This document shows positions 3,337-12,928 of a stretch of 64,000 bases of DNA, in pieces. Made by a program: the position numbers and the translations under genes. Every line of letters starts with the position of its first letter. The stretch's first letter is position 1. The notes beneath the pieces were generated by a model. That model worked only from the letters and a program-made list of their open reading frames with translations. It had not been told where the DNA came from and did not search any database. This stretch comes from Bryobacterales bacterium. GTDB taxonomy: Bacteria; Acidobacteriota; Terriglobia; Bryobacterales; Bryobacteraceae. The stretch is from contig CAWFUH010000002.1 of assembly GCA_963818855.1 (NCBI GenBank), positions 298,471-362,470 of the forward strand. Direction: 5' to 3'.

Positions 3337-5775
3337 ATGCGATACGCTTTTCGAGTCCTCCTGAAAAATCCCGGCTTCACCCTGGCGGCGGCCATCACCC
3401 TCGCGCTGGGCATCGGCGCCAACACGGCGATCTTTTCGGTCCTGAACGCCATGCTGCTGCACGCTATGCCGTATCGCGATCCGCAGCACCTGGTGATGGT
3501 GTGGGATGCCAACCCGGCGCTCGACAACCTGGTGGCCGAGCGCGTGCAAACGTGCCTGCAAAACTTCGTCGAATGGCGCGACCAGAACCGCGTCTTCGAC
3601 GGCATCGCCTTTTTCCGCTACCTCAGCTTCGATATTACCGGTGGCGACAAGCCGGAGGAGGTCAATGCCGCGGGTATCTCGCCCGGCTTCTTCGACGTTT
3701 TGGGGGCGCAAGGCGTAGCCGGCCGCACGTTCGCCGCACAGGAATCCGAGCCGGGCCGAAATCGGGTGGTGATCCTGAGCCAGGGTATCTATCAGCGGCG
3801 CTTCGGCGGGAATCCGCGCATATTAGGGCAGTCGATCGTTCTGAACGGCGCCGGTTACACGGTCGTCGGCGTACTGCCGCGGGAATTTCACCTGCCCTCG
3901 CTGCGCGGCGGCATGGAGGAGTTCAAACCGGAAGTTTGGGTGCCGGCCGACGTCGATCCCAAACGCGCCGGTCCGGACCTGACGGCCCGCGGGCTCTACA
4001 CGTTCGCGCGGCTGAAGCCAGGCGTGTCGATTGCACGGGCGCGCGCGGATATGGCGGTGATCGCCCGGCGCCTGGAAGAGAAGTATCCGCGCCTGGACCG
4101 GACCTGGCGCTCCAGCGTCTTTCCGATATCCGCCGAAGACATGGGGCCGGAGATGCACCGCACCTTGCTGGTGCTCGAATGCGCGGTGGCTTTCGTGCTG
4201 TTGATTGCCTGCGCCAACGTGATTAACCTGCAACTCACCCGCGCCGCTGCGCGGGAGAAAGAGATGGCCGTCCGTGCGGCGCTGGGTGCCAACCGCTGGC
4301 GCATGGCGCGGCAGATGCTGGGTGAAAGCCTGCTGCTCAGCGCGCTCGGTGGCGGCGCCGGTATTCTGCTGGCGCATTGGGCGGTCGCCGGCATGGTGTC
4401 GCTGGCGCCCTCCGATCTGCACCACATACAGGATCTGCAGATCGATGGCGGCGTGTTGCTCTTTACCGTGTTGGTTACCATTCTGACCGGTGTGTTGTTC
4501 GGTCTCGCCCCTGCCATTCTGGCCGCGCGCCAGGATCCTAACGCGGCATTGCGCCGTGGAGGACGGGCGGGCGAAGGCGGAATCTCCGCGCGCATCCGGC
4601 GCGCACTGGTGGTAGCGGAAGTGGCGCTGTCGCTAGTGCTGCTGGCGGGCGCCGGCCTCATGATTCGCAGTTTGAGTTCGGTCTTGCGGATCAGCCCCGG
4701 CTTCCGCAGCGATCATTTGCTGACCATGCAAATCGATCTGCGCAGCGACCGCTATACCAAGCCGGAACAGGGCGCCGCCTTCGTGAAAGACCTGTTGGAG
4801 CGCGTGTCGAGGCTGCCGGGAATTCTTTCCGCGGCGGTGGTGAACGATCTGCCCATGGAACGCATCCAGATGGCGCCCTTGCACGTGGAAGGGCGACCCG
4901 TGCCGCCGCCGGGACAGGCCACCGTGGCCGATTACCGCGAAGTGACGGAGGGCTACGTTCCCACCATGGGCATGCGCCTGATCGCCGGGCGCAATTTCAC
5001 GCGCGCGGAAGCCGAGAGACAGAATCCCACCGAGGTCATCGTCAACGAAAGCCTGGCACGCAGGCTGTGGCCGAGGGGAGATCCGCTGCAGAAGGTTCTG
5101 GATTCCGGCTATGACCTCGGCGCCGGCCGGACCCCATGGCGGCGCGTGGTCGTCGGTGTGGTCGCCGACACACGGCAGCTCGGCCTCGATAGCCCGCCGC
5201 GTTCCGAGATGTTCATCCCGTCCCGCAGCCAGTTTCCCAGGCTGGCGCTGATCGTGCGCACCGCGGGCGATCCGCTGCGTATGGCATCCGCCGTTACCGC
5301 GCAGGTGTGGGGCATCGATAAAGATCAATCCGTGCACGATGTCCAGGGCATGGACCACGTGGTGGACGACACCATCTCGCAGCGGCGCTTCAACATGCTG
5401 CTGTTGGCTGTTTTCGCGGCCACCGCGCTGCTAATGGCGGCCGTGGGGATCTACGGCGTGCTGGCCTATGCGGTGAGCCGGCGCACGCAGGAGATCGGTA
5501 TCCGCATGGCTTTGGGCGCGCAGACCGGCGATGTGCTCCGGCTGGTGGGGCGCGAGGGCCTGGTGCTGGCGGCGGCCGGCATCGGCGTGGGGCTCGCGGG
5601 AGCCCTGGTATTGACCCGGCTCATGAGCAGCCTGCTATTCGGCGTCAGCCCTACTGACCCAATCACTTTCGCGGCCGTGCCCGCCATGCTCGCCGCAGTG
5701 GCACTGGCGGCCTGTTACCTGCCAGCACGACGAGCCGCGCGCGTGGATCCGACGGTCGCCTTAAAATACGATTAG
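3337..5775 (+). CDS. ADOP-family duplicated MacB/FtsX-like ABC permease (orphan, no adjacent ATPase)
   Basis: The N-terminus [35 protein letters not shown] is the typical family start. Two MacB_PCD/FtsX halves are present. ORF 3217..5775; the internal ATG at 3337 is preferred. Confidence 0.85.
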
Positions 5776-5799
5776 CGCGTAGTTCTAGCTGTGGAATAT

Positions 5800-5829
5800 A
5801 CCACCTTCCGCCGGTGGTGATAGCTTTTT
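5800..5829 (+). terminator. Weak candidate intrinsic terminator after the ADOP permease gene
   Basis: Stem ACCACC/GGTGGT (5800-5818) with a 7-nt loop, then gatagcTTTTT. The short stem and the spacer before the T-run make it weak. Confidence 0.3.
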
Positions 5830-5835
5830 CAACGA

Positions 5836-6065
5836 GACTGTGGAAAAAGCTGTGAAAAGAAGCACTGGATTTGCGACAACTGCAATGTTCGTAAAGACTT
5901 CGTAACAAAGTGCACAGTGATACAGCACCGCTCTTTGCCGGTCTATAAGTTATAGATTCGCAGCTGGTTAGCTAACTCCGCAGGCAGCACCTCGATTTTG
6001 AAAATGCCAATACAGAGTCGAAATCGCCTGTCCACCGCAAATCCTCCTGCGAGGTTGTGAGTAAC
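5836..6065 (+). repeat. Non-coding module A, paralogous to 8824-9054
   Basis: Shares three collinear blocks with module B at the same offsets: GACTGTGGAAAARGCTGTGRAAA, GACTTCGTAAsAAA...ATACAGCA and TGTGAGTAAC. AT-richer than the flanking genes. Confidence 0.7.
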
Positions 6066-6101
6066 CTGCAGGGGAATGCCGTCTTAGGCGATAATCGGCT
6101 G

Positions 6102-6491
6102 ATGCATGTGCGCATCCTAGATTCCAGGCCCGGCGCTGGCGCGGTGGCGCGAGAGTGGGATTTCGACGCGGCCCGAATCACGCTGCGCGAGCTGATCCGC
6201 CAGCGAGTCTGCCGCGAGGTGGAGCAGTTCAATCGCGAACGGCCGGAGATTTTTGAAGGCTTGGTGCAGCCGGAAGAATCCGAGCAGATCCTGAACGGCT
6301 ATCGGGTGAAGTTCCATTACTTACGGGAACTCGATCCTGAACGGCAAGTCGAACGCGCCCTCCGGGCGTTCGAGCAACAAGGGTTCCTGGTGATCGCCGG
6401 CGGGTGCCAGGTTGAATCCATAGATGACGAAATCGATCTCGCCGCCGGTGAAGTCGAATTTATTAAGCTTGTGCCGCTTGTCGGAGGATAA
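6102..6491 (+). CDS. Small hypothetical protein ending in Gly-Gly; possible ubiquitin-like beta-grasp (ThiS/MoaD-like C-terminus)
   Basis: ORF 6057..6491 (GTG); the ATG at 6102 gives MHVRILD.... The C-terminus is ...FLVIAGGCQVESIDDEIDLAAGEVEFIKLVPLVGG-stop. No family recognised with certainty. Confidence 0.6.
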   Translation: MHVRILDSRPGAGAVAREWDFDAARITLRELIRQRVCREVEQFNRERPEIFEGLVQPEESEQILNGYRVKFHYLRELDPERQVERALRAFEQQGFLVIAGGCQVESIDDEIDLAAGEVEFIKLVPLVGG

Positions 6492-6514
6492 ATCGGAGGA
6501 TAAAGAGGATAAAT
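6481..6514 (+). repeat. Tandem 12-bp repeat TCGGAGGATAAA (two perfect units plus a degenerate third)
   Basis: Units at 6481-6492 and 6493-6504 are identical; 6505-6514 reads GAGGATAAAT. Unit 1 encodes the Gly-Gly-stop of the small gene. Unit 3 supplies a Shine-Dalgarno for the ATG at 6515. Confidence 0.9.
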
Positions 6515-6578
6515 ATGCCCGCGCCGCCTCGCAGCCTGCTGGAAGCTCTATTCCAGGCCGGCCTACGAAAACCCTCAA

Positions 6579-8795
6579 ATGAAGTCGCGGAAGAAGTCAA
6601 GAAACTCACGCCTCAACAACAGGTGGACTACGTCATGGAGGCGTTGCCGGCGCTTGTCAGATCGTACGAACCTTTCTGCCGCTAACGTCGTAGCTCCAAT
6701 CAGCGCCCTGCTGCGCCGGAAGTTGCCCTTCACATCCGATCAGATCCTCAGAATGGTTCAGCTCGGCGGAGATCCCAGCTACTATTTTCCTTTTCCTTCC
6801 GTGCTGCGCCTGGCGGAATCCGTTCCGATGACGCCGGAACTGGCAGAGGCGTTGCGCCGGATGCGCGGCGCCCGCGTGCTGGTGACCGGCCAGATGTCGG
6901 GCCATACGGCGATACAGGCTCGCATTGACGAGCTGCTCAATCCGAAGGATGCCGGCGCGCCCTTCGCGCCTGCGGGTGCCTGGAGCCGCCAGATCGCGGC
7001 GGAAGTGACGCCCGCCTGGCGCAGCGTCCTCGAAGCCGGCCGCGAAATCTCTGGGCGCGAACCTACCCGGAAGTGGCGGGAAGCGGCCGCGGCACGCGTC
7101 GCCGCAATCGGCCGCGAGCGGTTTCGCGAAACGTCCATGAAGTGGTTGGAGCTTGGCCCCAGTCCGGGTGAAGCCAATCAGCCGACCACCGTGCAGGAAT
7201 CCGATTATCAACGCGGCCTGCTGTGGTCGCTCATCGAAATATCGGACGCCGAGACGACGGCCGCCATAGCGCGTTTTGCGGAACAGTGCCTGCGCAAGAT
7301 TCCGGCGATCGGTCCGGTATCACAGCGCGCCGGCAATGCCTGCGTGGGTGTGCTGGCGGCCATGAGCGGCCCTGAGGCAGTGGCGCAACTCGCGCGCCTG
7401 GCGCTGCGGATTAAGTATCAGACCGCGCAACGCCTGGTACAGGAAGCGCTTGAAGAGGCGGCGAAAAGGCAGGGGCTGTCGCGGGAGGAACTTGAAGAAA
7501 TCACTGTGCCAACTTTCGGCCTGGACGGCAGCGGCAGCCGCGAAGAGCGCTGTGGCGAGCATGTTCTGGTACTCACCGCGCGCGGAGATGTTACATGCCG
7601 GGGCGCGGACGGCGCGAACCTGAAAGGCATGCCGGAAGTGGTAAAGCGAGATTTCGCCGCGGAATTAAAAGAGCTGAAGCAGGCAGCCAAAGAGATTGCT
7701 CCGCTGCGACAGGCGCATCGCGTGCGCCTGGAGCGCTTGCTGCTTACCGGACGAGCCATTCCTATCGAAACATGGCGCACGGCATATCTCGATCATCCGC
7801 TGATTGGCGGCATGGCGCGGCGCCTGATTTGGCAATTCTCCAATGGCACGACCGCCATCTGGCATAACGCCATGATGCGGGATTGGGGCGGAGTGGAAAT
7901 CGCGCCAACCGGTCCGGTGCGCCTTTGGCATCCTATCCATTCCGACGTGCAGACGGTGCTGAGCTGGCGCTGCTGGCTCGAGGATCGCCAGGTGCAGCAG
8001 CCGTTCAAGCAGGCGCATCGGGAGGTCTATCTCGTAACGGACGCCGAGCGCGCCGCCGGCAGCCAAAGCCAGCGCTTTGCGGGGCACATCCTGCGCCAGC
8101 ACCAGTTTGCCGCTCTGTGCGGCGAGCGCGGTTGGCACTTTCAATTGATGGGGCAGTGGGATTCACACAACACGCCCTATGTGGAGATCGCGCACGCCGG
8201 TTTACGCGCCGAGTATGAGGTGGATTTCCCTCGCGATGATGCGGTTACCGCGCACGCCATTTATATGTACCTGGAAACCCGCCAGGTGCGATTCCTCAAA
8301 GCGGGACTTCCTTGCCCCCTCGAATCTGTGCCGCCCGCGGTCTTCTCAGAAACCATGCGCGATGTGGACCTGTTTGTCAGCGTCACCAGCATCGGTAACG
8401 ATCCGGAATGGGGAATACGTCCAAATGCGCCGTTTCTCCAGTACTGGAACAAAATGTCATTCGGCGAGCTTTCGGCTTCCGGGGATCAACGCCGCCAGAT
8501 CGTCGCGGGGCTGCTCCCTAAGCTCGCCATTCGCGACCGGTGCCGGCTGGAGGATCGCCACCTTTTGGTGCGCGGCGACCTGGCTACTTACAAGATCCAC
8601 CTTGGGAGCGGCAGCGTGATGATCGAACCGGGCAGCCGCTATCTCTGCATCGTACGCAGCGGCGCCGCGAACGTATTCCTGCCCTTTGACGGCGACGCCA
8701 TGCTGTCGCTGATCCTGAGCAAGGCGTTTATGCTGGCAGCCGATATCAGGATCAAGGACATGAGCATCCTCCGCCAGATCCAGATTGCGACGTAA
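6579..8795 (+). CDS. DUF4132 (MolR-like) domain protein; 5' region frame-disrupted, with the probable original start at ATG 6515
   Basis: C-terminal half motifs as I recall for DUF4132: FKQAHREVYLVTDAER, RFAGHILRQHQFAAL, VFSETMRDVDLFVSVTSIGNDPEW, YKIHLGSGSVMIEPGSRYLCIV, FLPFDGDAMLSLILSKA. The first ~30 residues of the listed ORF look out of frame (Arg-rich). A 56-codon ORF from 6515 has a strong SD and a protein-like sequence, and stops at 6683-6685. Confidence 0.7.
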   Translation: MKSRKKSRNSRLNNRWTTSWRRCRRLSDRTNLSAANVVAPISALLRRKLPFTSDQILRMVQLGGDPSYYFPFPSVLRLAESVPMTPELAEALRRMRGARVLVTGQMSGHTAIQARIDELLNPKDAGAPFAPAGAWSRQIAAEVTPAWRSVLEAGREISGREPTRKWREAAAARVAAIGRERFRETSMKWLELGPSPGEANQPTTVQESDYQRGLLWSLIEISDAETTAAIARFAEQCLRKIPAIGPVSQRAGNACVGVLAAMSGPEAVAQLARLALRIKYQTAQRLVQEALEEAAKRQGLSREELEEITVPTFGLDGSGSREERCGEHVLVLTARGDVTCRGADGANLKGMPEVVKRDFAAELKELKQAAKEIAPLRQAHRVRLERLLLTGRAIPIETWRTAYLDHPLIGGMARRLIWQFSNGTTAIWHNAMMRDWGGVEIAPTGPVRLWHPIHSDVQTVLSWRCWLEDRQVQQPFKQAHREVYLVTDAERAAGSQSQRFAGHILRQHQFAALCGERGWHFQLMGQWDSHNTPYVEIAHAGLRAEYEVDFPRDDAVTAHAIYMYLETRQVRFLKAGLPCPLESVPPAVFSETMRDVDLFVSVTSIGNDPEWGIRPNAPFLQYWNKMSFGELSASGDQRRQIVAGLLPKLAIRDRCRLEDRHLLVRGDLATYKIHLGSGSVMIEPGSRYLCIVRSGAANVFLPFDGDAMLSLILSKAFMLAADIRIKDMSILRQIQIAT

Positions 8796-8823
8796 AGTCC
8801 GGGCGCACGGGGCACGCCAGGCG

Positions 8824-9054
8824 GACTGTGGAAAAGGCTGTGGAAATGAACGGCGATTCGGTACAAGTCTACGTCTTCTCAATGACTTCGTAAGAAATTG
8901 CCCCGCCATACAGCAGAGGCCTGAGAACAGCCTTAAATAATTGGTTTGAAACGCACTTAGCAAACAGAGATTGGTGTTTCGAGCGGCGTGTACACTAATT
9001 GAATTCCTTCTCGCACGCGGCGTAACGGCAAGCTCCGGCCACCCTGTGAGTAAC
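8824..9054 (+). repeat. Non-coding module B, paralogous to 5836-6065
   Basis: Same three conserved blocks at offsets 0, 58 and 221 nt. Starts inside a hairpin (8796-8827) that follows the DUF4132 stop. Ends on the stop codon of the convergent GH32 gene. Confidence 0.7.
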
Positions 9055-10517
9055 TAAGAGGTCAGCCGATCCGGCGAGATGGGCCGCATTTCCCAAGCTT
9101 CGAACGACAGCATGTTCGCCGTGCCGCTGCTTGCATATAACGCGATTCCGGTGCTTCGTGGGCCGGCCGGATACACCCGCGCGCTCAAACAGAACCGGTC
9201 GTTGGCGAATATTTCGATCACGGATCCATCCAGGAAGATATGTAACCGCAAATGCTCGCCGCGGCCCAAAAGGAACGGCCCGGATTGCATGGACTTATCC
9301 GCGGTGCGATCGGTGCTCGACTGGCTGCGGTCCACGCAGATCAACCGCTGGTCGCGATCGTAGTACACCAGCGTCTGCTCGCTGCGGTCCGGTGCAATGC
9401 GCAGCTTCAAGCCGGCAAGCGGCGCATCCGCCGGATCGATCTCCGCCCGGATCTCCAGGCAATCACCTGCGGCGTCGCCGCCCAGCCGCTTGCCGCGCAA
9501 GCTTTCCAGTTCCGGTGCCGGGCGCGTTTGCAACTGGCTGCCAAACAACTTCAACTCGCGCGGAAGCGACATTACACCGCTCCAACCGGCCGCCCGTTGC
9601 GCTTCGACCGGGCGGCCCTCGGTCAGCCATCCCCAGAGAATGCGCCGCCCGCTGGTGTTCGTCATGGTGCGCGCCGCGTAATACGAACCGAAGTCGATGC
9701 CACCCATGGTCTCCGCATAGAATTGGCGATCAGTATATGAGCCGAGCATATACTGGACTACGCGTTCGGTAGAGACGATGAGCAGATACTTGTTGTCGAT
9801 CGGGAAGAAATCCGGGCACTCCCACATTTCGCCGCTATCCACCGGATCTTTGGCGCCGGCACCGGAGTGAAACCTGCGGGTGATCAGCGGATGCAGGTAG
9901 TTCCACTTGCGCAAGTCCTTCGATTCGTACAAGAGCACCGTGCCGCCTTTGCCGCGAAAGCCGGCGCCCAGGCCCATCAGCCAGGTGTCGCCCTCTTTCC
10001 ACACGGCGGGGTCGCGGAAACCCGTCACCTCCAGGCCGGCGGGTGGCGCCGCGATCACCGGATTGCCCGCAAACTTCTTCCAGTCCGTCAGGTTGCCGCT
10101 GCTGGTCGCGATCGACTGGGTTTCCGGATTCACGCCGGTATATATCGCGGTGACGGTCTGGCCGTCGATCACCGCGCAGCCGCTGAATACCCCGTCCTTG
10201 TCGGGCCCGCCCGGCGTGGGCGCGAGCGCCATCGGCAGATGCTTCCAGCGCACGATGTCCTCGCTGACGGCGTGGCCCCAGTGCATGTCTCCCCAAAACG
10301 CCCCATTGGGATTGTACTGATAAAACATGTGATACTGGCCCTGCCAGTAGATGGGGCCGTTGGGATCGTTCATCCAGTTGGCGGGGGGCAGCAGGTGATA
10401 TTGCGGCCGGTGCGGATCGGCCGCCAGCTTGGAAGCCGGGACTGCGGGGCCGCCGCCGACTAGCGGGAGGGCGCCCGCCAACGCCAGGAATTCACGCCGA
10501 CGCATTACAGGCTGCAT
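9054..10517 (-). CDS. Glycoside hydrolase family 32 (beta-fructofuranosidase/levanase-like), Tat-exported
   Basis: Motifs WMNDPNGP, FYQYNP, WGHAVS, FRDP and WECPDF. Twin-arginine signal MRRREFLALAGALPLVGG. Confidence 0.9.
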   Translation of the reverse strand: MQPVMRRREFLALAGALPLVGGGPAVPASKLAADPHRPQYHLLPPANWMNDPNGPIYWQGQYHMFYQYNPNGAFWGDMHWGHAVSEDIVRWKHLPMALAPTPGGPDKDGVFSGCAVIDGQTVTAIYTGVNPETQSIATSSGNLTDWKKFAGNPVIAAPPAGLEVTGFRDPAVWKEGDTWLMGLGAGFRGKGGTVLLYESKDLRKWNYLHPLITRRFHSGAGAKDPVDSGEMWECPDFFPIDNKYLLIVSTERVVQYMLGSYTDRQFYAETMGGIDFGSYYAARTMTNTSGRRILWGWLTEGRPVEAQRAAGWSGVMSLPRELKLFGSQLQTRPAPELESLRGKRLGGDAAGDCLEIRAEIDPADAPLAGLKLRIAPDRSEQTLVYYDRDQRLICVDRSQSSTDRTADKSMQSGPFLLGRGEHLRLHIFLDGSVIEIFANDRFCLSARVYPAGPRSTGIALYASSGTANMLSFEAWEMRPISPDRLTS

Positions 10518-11134: not shown

Positions 11135-11734
11135 GTGGTACTGAAATACGCTACCTTCGACGAGGAGTACGTGCAGAGGCTGACGGACGGAGAATCCGCC
11201 GCCTGCGACCACTTCGTGTCGTATTTTGAGAACGTTTTATTCCTAAAGCTGCGCGTGCGGCTGCGCTCTGCACAGTTGATTGAGGATATCCGCCAGGAGA
11301 CCTTCATGCGCGTGCTGTTCATTTTGCGCCAGGGCTCCGGCGTGGATCGCCCGGAACGCTTCGGGGCCTTCGTTAACGGCGTATGCAACAATGTGTTACG
11401 GGAGTTCCGCCGCTTGGACGACCGGGCCGTGCTGTGGGACGAACACAATATGGAGGAACCCGTAGATCCTGCCACAGACCTGGACGCCGGCCTGCTCAGC
11501 CACGATCTGCAGCGGGAGATCAGGCGCGTCCTTGAAACCATGTCCGAGAGGGATCGCCGGATTCTGAAAGCGGTCTATCTTGATGAAATGAGCAGAAACG
11601 ATATCTGCCGGCTGTTTCAGATAGATCCGGGTTACTTGCGCGTCATGCTCTACCGCGCAAAGGAACAGTTCCGCAAAATCTACTGCCTCACGGTTGCCCA
11701 GGTTCCGTTTGCCCTCGAAGACGAAGAAGAGTGA
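11135..11734 (+). CDS. ECF-type RNA polymerase sigma-70 family factor
   Basis: Region 2 (DIRQETFMRVL) and region 4 HTH (SERDRRILKAVYLDEMSRNDICRLFQIDPGYLRVMLYRAKEQF). GTG start. Confidence 0.8.
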   Translation: MVLKYATFDEEYVQRLTDGESAACDHFVSYFENVLFLKLRVRLRSAQLIEDIRQETFMRVLFILRQGSGVDRPERFGAFVNGVCNNVLREFRRLDDRAVLWDEHNMEEPVDPATDLDAGLLSHDLQREIRRVLETMSERDRRILKAVYLDEMSRNDICRLFQIDPGYLRVMLYRAKEQFRKIYCLTVAQVPFALEDEEE

Positions 11735-12197
11735 CAATAGCCTGAGCCTCCGCCGACCGGCCTTCACCAACCGGGCCGACGCCCTCCGCGGTCTTGAACT
11801 TCAGGGACACGCGGTCCAGATCGAGTTCCAGGGTTGCGGCGAGTTGGCGGCGGATGGCGTCCCGATAATCTTTTAGCTTGGGACGTTCCAGAATCACGGT
11901 GGAATCCACGTTCACGATCCGGTAACCGCGGCCCATCGCCAGATCGCGCGCGTGGACCAGGAATTGAAGACTGCCGGCGCCTTGCCATCGCGGGTCGGTA
12001 TCGGGAAAGTGCATGCCGATGTCCCCTAGTGCGGCCGCGCCCAGGATGGCGTCTGTAATGGCGTGCGCCAGAACATCGGCGTCGGAATGGCCTTCGAGGC
12101 CGTACGGGGCGGGGATAGCGACTCCGCCCAGGATCAGGGGACGATCGGGTGCCAGCCGGTGCGCATCCCAGCCGAGACCCGTGCGGTATTCGCTCAC
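11688..12197 (-). CDS. ispF: 2-C-methyl-D-erythritol 2,4-cyclodiphosphate synthase
   Basis: GLGWDAHRL...GHSDADVLAHAITDAILGAAALGDIGMHFPDTDPRWQGA closely matches E. coli IspF motifs. Confidence 0.95.
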   Translation of the reverse strand: MSEYRTGLGWDAHRLAPDRPLILGGVAIPAPYGLEGHSDADVLAHAITDAILGAAALGDIGMHFPDTDPRWQGAGSLQFLVHARDLAMGRGYRIVNVDSTVILERPKLKDYRDAIRRQLAATLELDLDRVSLKFKTAEGVGPVGEGRSAEAQAIVTLLRLRGQTEPGQP

Positions 12198-12928
12198 AGT
12201 TCGCGGGGCGCGGTTTCCTCTTCCAGGAACAGCCGCGCCAGGTCCATATCGCTGGGCTTAGTGATCTTGATGTTGCGGTCGCTGCCCAGCACCACGCTGA
12301 CTTCCACTTCCAGCCGCTCCACCAGGCTCGATTCATCGGTGGCGGTGAAGCCGTCGCTCTGTGCGGCGGCGAAGGCCCGCACCAGCAGATCGTAGCGGAA
12401 AACCTGCGGCGTTTGCGCCAGCACCAGCTTTTCGCGCGGCAGCGTGGCGCGGATCTTGGCTTTGCTGGTCTGGGCGCGGGTCACCTGCTTCACCGTATCT
12501 ACCGGCACGATTCCCACAATAGCCGCGCCGGTTTCGGCGGCTTCGTCGATTACCTTTTCGATGGTTTCCAGATCGATGAAGGGCCGCACGGCGTCGTGCA
12601 CCGCTACCAGCGTGGTATCGGGATCGAGCGCCGCCAGGGCGTTTTCCACGGATTGCTGCCGCGAATTGCCGCCTTCCACCACGCGCATTTTCTTGCCGGA
12701 TACTTCGCGCTGGAGCATTTCCGCGACCCAATCCAGATCCTCGTGCCGCACGGCCACCACGATCTCGGCGACGCGCGGTATCGCGGCAAACTTGCGCACC
12801 GAATGCAGCAGGATGGGAGCGCCATCCAGCAGCATGAACTGCTTCCTACTGGTGCCCGCTTTCTCGGCGGACGTCCGGCCCATGCGGGTACCAAGCCCCG
12901 CCGCGGGCAGAATCACAGCCACTTTCAT
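12194..12928 (-). CDS. ispD: 2-C-methyl-D-erythritol 4-phosphate cytidylyltransferase
   Basis: N-terminal AVILPAAGLGTRMG...KQFMLLDGAPIL. 4-nt overlap with ispF. Confidence 0.9.
   Translation of the reverse strand: MKVAVILPAAGLGTRMGRTSAEKAGTSRKQFMLLDGAPILLHSVRKFAAIPRVAEIVVAVRHEDLDWVAEMLQREVSGKKMRVVEGGNSRQQSVENALAALDPDTTLVAVHDAVRPFIDLETIEKVIDEAAETGAAIVGIVPVDTVKQVTRAQTSKAKIRATLPREKLVLAQTPQVFRYDLLVRAFAAAQSDGFTATDESSLVERLEVEVSVVLGSDRNIKITKPSDMDLARLFLEEETAPREL

Follow-up and report, generated by a model that had tools for sequence, protein, structure and literature searches.

The two genes described here raise the question of what a small protein ending in Gly-Gly (GG) does beside a partner of the DUF4132 family, a family without an assigned function even in Escherichia coli. 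They lie in a 64,000 nucleotide (nt) stretch of contig CAWFUH010000002.1 from a Bryobacterales bacterium, referred to here as the window, and positions are those of the window unless another locus is named. The first gene is an open reading frame (ORF) at 6102–6491 encoding 129 amino acids (aa), the C-terminus of which is ...FIKLVPLVGG (FLVIAGGCQVESIDDEIDLAAGEVEFIKLVPLVGG), and it ends with a TAA stop codon at 6489–6491. A spacer of 23 nt separates this stop from an ATG at 6515, which has the Shine-Dalgarno-like motifs GGAGG and GAGGA ahead of it. A preliminary description of this DNA, made from the sequence alone, had read the ORF, its GG end and the spacing correctly, and had proposed a ubiquitin-like system coupled to a DUF4132 protein. 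The small protein is a member of a real, large and unannotated family that is conserved together with its partner gene, and at the 84 loci searched no homologue of an activating enzyme is linked to the two. As far as literature searches reach, the pairing appears to be undescribed; no earlier account of a ubiquitin-like protein paired with DUF4132 turned up in the searchable literature, as had been supposed. The literature searched names DUF4132 without functional work and does not mention DUF7737, the second domain of the partner, or the Pfam/InterPro accessions, and sources that name the small protein call it 'hypothetical' only.

The small protein family and its conserved pairing

The Met encoded at 6102 is the first residue in all homologues of the small protein. 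With an alternative start, a GTG at 6057, the protein would be 15 residues longer (144 aa), and one public annotation (P0002) uses this start. No Pfam or NCBIfam model matched the protein, there being no Pfam family at E ≤ 1, and no solved structure was matched by sequence or profile search. A word-index search found 123 homologues, all of about 129 aa and all labelled 'hypothetical'. Profile searching of 1.84 billion cluster representatives (50% identity clusters) gave 2225 matches at E ≤ 1e-3 and 1115 at E ≤ 1e-10, with the end of the profile being the end of the protein in nearly all of the 2225. With so many matching cluster representatives, the small ORF is far from being a chance ORF.

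The GG terminus, on which the ubiquitin-like proposal was built, is kept in the orthologues. It forms the exact C-terminus of 257 of the 268 family members retrieved; three others have two residues after it (GGSR, GGSL and GGIR) and the remaining eight are fragments or frameshift products. In the genomes, GG followed directly by a stop codon was read in all 80 of the loci described below. An alignment of 126 diverse members has a mean column identity of 40% and four invariant columns only, two of which are G128 and G129. The tail F(I/L)KLVPLVGG is strongly conserved, and an acidic loop, GLVQPEESEQILNG, is near-invariant within an insert of about 45 residues (residues ~47–92). The codons of the terminal glycines vary synonymously (GGA GGA, GGT GGC, GGC GGT and GGT GGG). 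GGA GGA, which doubles as a Shine-Dalgarno motif, is common in the Acidobacteriota, and GGT GGC is usual in Streptomyces. Selection therefore goes beyond the Shine-Dalgarno motif and extends to the amino acids themselves, and an embedded motif of this kind, with GG as its by-product, was discarded as a full explanation.

Scanning of one genome for each species identified 564 loci carrying the small gene, and the counts given here rest on the best 80 of these 564. They comprise 25 loci from Acidobacteriota and 55 from Streptomyces, Kitasatospora or Actinacidiphila. A DUF4132 homologue is directly downstream of the small gene, on the same strand, in 78 of the 80. When the ORFs of these loci were all clustered stringently, the small gene and its partner were the only genes common to both phyla. 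Four further records were found in a collection of plasmids and chromids, and the three examined all have the small gene followed by the partner. These are from Chondrinema and Fulvitalea, both Bacteroidota, and from Novosphingobium, of the Alphaproteobacteria, with tails of LTPLVGG, LVSLVGG and LTPLKGG respectively. The recurrent association of a small ORF with DUF4132, which the preliminary description had offered as a check, is thus present in loci from other phyla as well, and the pair is spread over at least four bacterial phyla: Acidobacteriota, Actinomycetota, Bacteroidota and Alphaproteobacteria. A search of 50,697 phage records found no copy of the pair.

In most other lineages the stop codon of the small gene and the start codon of the partner are mostly −4 to +8 nt apart, a spacing that is the signature of translational coupling. 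The longer spacer of the window is formed by the copy generated in a tandem duplication of the 3' end of the small gene (Table 1). This copy consists of the last codons and stop of the small gene and contains the Shine-Dalgarno motifs of the partner gene. The gap is only 1 nt in the Sulfopaludibacter orthologue (L001); in the window it is stretched to 23 nt, with the Shine-Dalgarno motifs retained. A terminator-like stem-loop behind the preceding permease gene is likely to mark the 5' limit of a transcription unit made up of the two genes. A consensus scan of 5700–9100 revealed no sigma-70-like promoter, and no riboswitch or known RNA was found upstream of the pair.

The partner gene, its product and its surroundings

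The preliminary description placed the start of the DUF4132 gene at ATG 6515, which is right, but it missed a frameshift. In the window the frame from this ATG is an ORF of 56 aa (6515–6685), and the long ORF with DUF4132 is read in a different frame (6579/6654–8795, 6654 being a TTG). Three near-identical metagenome contigs (L081–L083) are without one G near 6652 and encode an intact protein of 759 aa, which starts at the equivalent of 6515 (10459–12735 in L081). Judged against these contigs, the window copy is frameshifted by a 1 nt insertion, the G near 6652, which is either a sequencing or assembly error or a recent mutation. Three single-nucleotide differences from the contigs, at 6520, 6534 and 6589, are near the frameshift. 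The deposited annotation begins at TTG 6654 and gives a product of 713 aa (P0121). The downstream GH32 glycoside hydrolase also differs, being 487 aa in the window (9054–10517, reverse strand) and called at 334 aa in L081 (12997–14001), which suggests further indel differences between assemblies of the source organism.

The partner protein matches Pfam DUF4132 (PF13569) at 155.2 bits (E = 2.3e-45) and, at its C-terminus, DUF7737 (PF24879) at 121.6 bits (E = 1.6e-35), the gathering cutoff being 27 in each case. Orthologues of four phyla also score above the gathering threshold for DUF4132, and DUF7737 was found in all 37 of the orthologues scanned. An alpha/beta region between the two domains is covered by no Pfam model. 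The AlphaFold2 model of the partner has a predicted local distance difference test score (pLDDT) of 81.5 and a predicted template modelling score (pTM) of 0.55, and consists of a stretch of helical repeats, about 290 residues long, with mixed alpha/beta domains after it. Whole-chain Foldseek searching gave weak HEAT/ARM-type matches only, coming from the helical repeats, and sequence and profile searches of the PDB with the partner matched nothing. The orthologue in Kitasatospora (L077, 4210–8643) is 1477 aa long and has N-terminal TPR repeats (TPR_12, E = 2e-27). The repeats at the N-terminus are thus variable, in contrast to the constant C-terminal core.

Three blocks of this core are invariant in 73 orthologues and in distant members: QP.KQ..RE.Y..T..E....S.R.A.H....L...RGW, SE..RD.D..V.V.....DP, and Y..H.GS ... 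PF...D ... SK. The invariant polar residues, which are K452, R456, E457, H478, E566, R569, D570, D572, D583, H649, D681 and K690, suggest an active site with a putative metal-binding acidic cluster. Cysteines of the partner are not universally conserved when distant members are compared. C630 and C665, considered as a catalytic pair in DUF7737, are invariant in the 73 close orthologues but are lost in Bacteroidota or DUF5724 relatives, and this candidate was rejected. Likewise rejected was an E2/UBC-like domain in DUF4132, an idea prompted by a meander of four strands with W-H-P and a Cys after it; the C-terminal half of the partner gave an hhalign probability of 0.08% against three approximate E2 sequences, and the candidate Cys440 is not conserved, being Asp in Streptomyces. 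An apparent fusion of the small protein to DUF4132 (P0293, 969 aa) is a read-through product of a frameshift, and its middle part is out of frame and rich in Arg, Pro and Gly. In the organism of P0293 a DUF4132 gene precedes the small gene.

In Actinacidiphila (L031, 5309–7819) and Fulvitalea (L092, 2935–8049) a second DUF4132/DUF7737-like gene is found beside the pair, divergent and on the reverse strand. The one in Fulvitalea is annotated DUF5724. Neither has a small gene of its own, and one small protein may serve two partners in these organisms. Two Streptomyces loci have lost an intact partner gene: at L050 (8360–8400) a clean deletion has left the small gene orphaned, and at L052 (8357–9871) a Cas12f1-like TnpB/IS605 OrfB is inserted in the DUF4132 gene. 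A cluster of SdhA-sized ORFs is present a few kb downstream in 41 of the 55 actinomycete loci, and was identified as SdhA in L013. This synteny points to a stable cellular role and not to a mobile defence island. The annotated or Pfam-scanned neighbours in six contexts are unrelated to the pair, being ABC permease, GH32, response regulator, MMPL, TetR, Uma2, succinate dehydrogenase, type IX secretion system, IS21 and Mrr genes, those for IS21 and Mrr being beside the Novosphingobium copy. In Streptomyces sp. GQFP (L013) genes for Uma2-family putative endonucleases flank the pair on both sides (6382–7479 and 11642–12613).

Table 1. Features of the two-gene locus, with window positions and the basis of each assignment
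Feature	Position	Strand	Description and basis
Terminator-like stem-loop	5799..5819	+	3' of upstream MacB/FtsX permease gene; consensus scan only
Small protein gene	6102..6491	+	129 aa, PLVGG-stop; predicted beta-grasp-like fold; ORF list and sequence
Tandem duplication of 3' end of small gene	6481..6513	+	TCGGAGGATAAA x2, GAGGATAAA x2; Tandem Repeats Finder and sequence
DUF4132/DUF7737 partner gene	6515..8795	+	Broken in the window; ORF list and comparison with contigs L081–L083
N-terminal all-helical repeat region (HEAT/ARM-like)	6654..7523	+	AlphaFold2 helices 10–283; weak Foldseek matches
DUF4132 domain (PF13569)	7611..8135	+	Block W-H-P ... QPFKQAHREVY..T.AE....S.RFA.H...Q....L...RGW invariant; 73 orthologues and distant members
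Alpha/beta region between Pfam domains	8136..8486	+	Acidic motif SE..RD.DLFV.V.S....DP invariant; conservation analysis
DUF7737 domain (PF24879)	8487..8780	+	Helix, five beta strands, two helices; Y.(I/L)H.GS, PF...D and SK...L invariant

Predicted fold and possible roles

The AlphaFold2 model of the small protein, made with the family alignment, has a pLDDT of 83.7 and a pTM of 0.81. The predicted elements are strands at residues 2–8, 14–20 and 25–27, a helix at 28–46, a hairpin at 60–69, a helix at 79–91, and strands at 95–99, 110–112 and 117–122. Their order in the model, beta-beta-alpha then beta-beta-beta with the insert in between, is that of a beta-grasp fold. Residues 127–129 have pLDDT values below 50 and the GG tail is predicted to be flexible or disordered. 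The top Foldseek matches, in the PDB and the BFVD viral models, are almost all ubiquitin, SUMO, ISG15, archaeal ubiquitin and staphylococcal beta-grasp domains. On this modelling the small protein is compatible with a beta-grasp fold, which is not proven. Its last 24–31 residues, V.G.QV..LD...L....E..F..L.PLVGG, can be aligned with the end of MoaD, ...AVNQTLVSFDHPLTDGDEVAFFPPVTGG, and the end of E. coli ThiS is ...DQILLFQVIAGG, as the preliminary description had given it for comparison.

Retention of GG across four phyla, on the flexible tail of a probable beta-grasp protein, is a hallmark of a C-terminal carboxylate that is the working group. Enzymes that could act on such a group were looked for near the genes. 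E. coli MoeB, ThiF, ThiG, MoaE, ThiS and MoaD, used as tblastn queries, gave no match in the window or at 84 loci with flanks of 8–10 kb. No JAMM motif is present in any frame of the window. The statement that the window contains no E1-like, JAB/MPN, thi or moa genes was therefore sound. Among the annotated or Pfam-scanned neighbours of the six contexts there are no members of the E1, E2 or JAB families, and none of the Pup-ligase family.

The reading that is ranked first, as a tentative one, is that of a carrier-plus-partner pair built like MoaD–MoaE or ThiS–ThiG and activated by an unlinked E1. It has this rank because E1, E2 and JAB genes are not conserved beside the pair, whereas sulfur-carrier pairs are adjacent genes for which the E1 may be unlinked. 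The small protein would be a beta-grasp protein with a flexible tail, the free Gly-Gly carboxylate of which is the functional group. Translational coupling would allow it and its partner to be made in fixed proportion. It may be inferred that the C-terminal core of the partner, comprising DUF4132, the alpha/beta region and DUF7737, receives the GG tail by docking. Activation of the tail to an acyl-adenylate or thiocarboxylate would be by a housekeeping E1 of the MoeB/MoeZ/ThiF type, presumably encoded elsewhere in the genome. With the tail activated, the partner would apply it to a substrate chosen by its variable N-terminal HEAT/TPR-type repeats.

Several results weigh against a carrier of this kind. 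The Foldseek E-values are all 8e-3 or greater, with none at E ≤ 1e-3, and the target-normalised TM scores are 0.43–0.57. The beta-grasp fold proposed in the preliminary description is favoured by the order of the elements and the ubiquitin-fold top matches, but not by the scores of those matches. Comparison with MoaD by hhalign gave a probability of 1.3–2.2% over the last 24–31 columns, this being a weak test as the MoaD profile was made of close enterobacterial sequences only. The ThiS family (PF02597) is seen below threshold in 5 of the 126 diverse members, with a best E-value of 0.063, and ties as the commonest such match with UvrA_inter, also in 5 of 126. Neither sequence nor profile comparison connects the small protein significantly with ThiS/MoaD, so the likeness that had been drawn to these proteins is not upheld by Pfam or hhalign, and membership of the family is not established from the sequences. 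No sulfur-mobilising genes or cofactor riboswitch are near the pair in the loci examined, and the partner is not similar to any known sulfurtransferase, synthase, E1 or E2. The helical repeats predicted over some 290 residues of the partner are also more in keeping with a scaffold or sensor than with a biosynthetic enzyme.

As no chemistry has been demonstrated, it is nearly as likely that the small protein stays permanently but non-covalently bound to its partner as a structural or regulatory subunit, with the acidic loop GLVQPEESE and the GG tail used for docking only. Tight translational coupling and the strict conservation of the two genes are consistent with such a subunit, as are the lack of a linked activating enzyme in any of the 84 loci and the scaffold-like helical-repeat N-terminus of the partner. 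The acidic loop is the most conserved internal part of the small protein, and would face a partner that is rich in invariant arginines. Docking alone does not readily account for GG at the extreme C-terminus of 257 of 268 members from four phyla, with varying codons, on a tail that is predicted to be flexible and not packed on the fold. To our knowledge, the non-covalent beta-grasp subunits TmoB, YukD and RnfH do not retain a terminal Gly-Gly.

It is unlikely that the small protein is a protein modifier, the C-terminal Gly of which is joined to target lysines as in sampylation or urmylation, with an unlinked E1 and with the DUF4132 protein as an E3-like factor or the main target. A GG terminus on a ubiquitin-like fold is what such a modifier would have, and the variable HEAT/TPR N-termini of the partner resemble substrate-recognition modules. 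SAMPs and TtuB are conjugated by way of an unlinked E1, and the three family members with two residues after GG would need processing. The known Bil/Bub operons, however, keep their E1, E2 and JAB genes together, and there is no E1 near the 84 loci and no E2, JAB or deubiquitinase (DUB) among the neighbours examined. The failure of the partner cysteines to be conserved in distant members argues against a thioester relay, and the partner has no similarity to E2 proteins, as judged with the three approximate sequences. The ubiquitin-like conjugation 'system' of the preliminary description does not find support in these loci.

A further proposal, and quite an improbable one, is that the DUF4132–DUF7737 protein replaces an E1 and itself activates or ligates the GG terminus by means of its acidic/His/Arg core (SE..RD.D, H.GS and PF..D). 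If this were true, the two genes would make up a minimal system of ubiquitin-like modification, independent of E1 and E2, that extends over four or more bacterial phyla. Least likely of all is a conflict or defence module, with the DUF4132 protein as sensor (repeats) and effector (acidic/His core, for example nuclease-like) and the small protein as its regulator or inhibitor: the patchy distribution over phyla, including plasmids and chromids, the IS21 and Mrr genes beside the Novosphingobium copy and the Uma2 genes flanking a Streptomyces copy, the decay events (the L050 deletion, the L052 TnpB insertion and the window frameshift) and the MoxR/VWA/SWIM cluster adjoining the E. coli DUF4132 genes are in its favour, but the PADLOC defence-system models gave no meaningful match, there are no homologues in the phage records, and the position is syntenic across many Streptomyces with ordinary metabolic neighbours in Acidobacteriota.

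Sulfur carriers and ubiquitin both go back to beta-grasp proteins ending in GG, and each new bacterial family of these has clarified the evolution of protein tagging. The family described here is large, with more than 2000 clusters at 50% identity, and is tied to a single partner. The fate of its C-terminal glycine would give the first functional handle on DUF4132 and DUF7737. The outcome would be either a new use of the logic of MoaD and ThiS or a new route to the activation of a ubiquitin-like tail.

Comparison with known systems

Pup is a disordered modifier of about 64 aa that ends in GGQ or GGE and has PafA/Dop as its ligase. The small protein differs in being predicted to be folded and in ending in GG. 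In E. coli, YehI and YehH (MolR) share the DUF4132 domain with the partner, including the H-P and P-F-(K/R)-Q motifs; YehI matches the Pfam model at E = 2e-47 and the window orthologue by BLASTP at E = 2e-11. Unlike the partner, YehI is without DUF7737 and without the acidic SE..RD.D region. In strain K-12 (L085, 2196474–2210944) yehH (molR), which is a pseudogene, and yehI are located between yehF (WGR) and yehLMPQ (MoxR/DUF5682/VWA/SWIM), and such WGR and MoxR/VWA/SWIM genes are absent beside the GG pair. YehK, the small neighbour of yehI, was considered as a counterpart of the small protein and is unrelated. The profile of the small protein family has no match in YehI, YehH, YehF, the DUF5724 protein or paralogues.

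Bacterial conjugation operons of the Bil/Bub type carry the genes for a ubiquitin-like protein, E1, E2 and JAB/DUB together. The likeness to the pair is in the beta-grasp-like protein with a C-terminal Gly-Gly and in the compact operon. The pair differs in having no linked E1 at the 84 loci, no JAMM motif in the window, no E2 or JAB neighbours and no PADLOC match, and it is syntenic across Streptomyces and not island-like. The archaeal SAMPs and TtuB of Thermus are GG-ended beta-grasp proteins that are both sulfur carriers and protein modifiers, and their E1 is unlinked. The absence of a linked E1 is therefore compatible with C-terminal chemistry. SAMPs and TtuB match the ThiS/MoaD family by sequence, however, which the small protein does not, and they have no dedicated co-translated partner such as the DUF4132 protein.

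The closest likeness in layout is to MoaD–MoaE. Both have a flexible GG-ended tail and, at the C-terminus, a motif of the form V.G..V....L..G/sE V.F..(P)P..GG, and in both the carrier gene would be directly upstream of, and coupled to, the gene for the protein that uses the carrier. In E. coli moaD and moaE are adjacent with a 1 nt gap, and moeB is unlinked. ThiS–ThiG and CysO–CysM are further pairs of a sulfur carrier and its partner to which the small protein and its DUF4132 partner can be likened. Sulfur carriers are 66–95 aa in length, whereas the small protein has 129 aa, with an insert of about 45 residues and an invariant acidic loop of its own. The partner is unrelated to MoaE or ThiG, being a repeat-containing protein of about 760 aa with no thi, moa or cys genes nearby. 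The pair is thus best described as a GG-ended protein of beta-grasp type with a dedicated partner, and it is the type of partner that is new.

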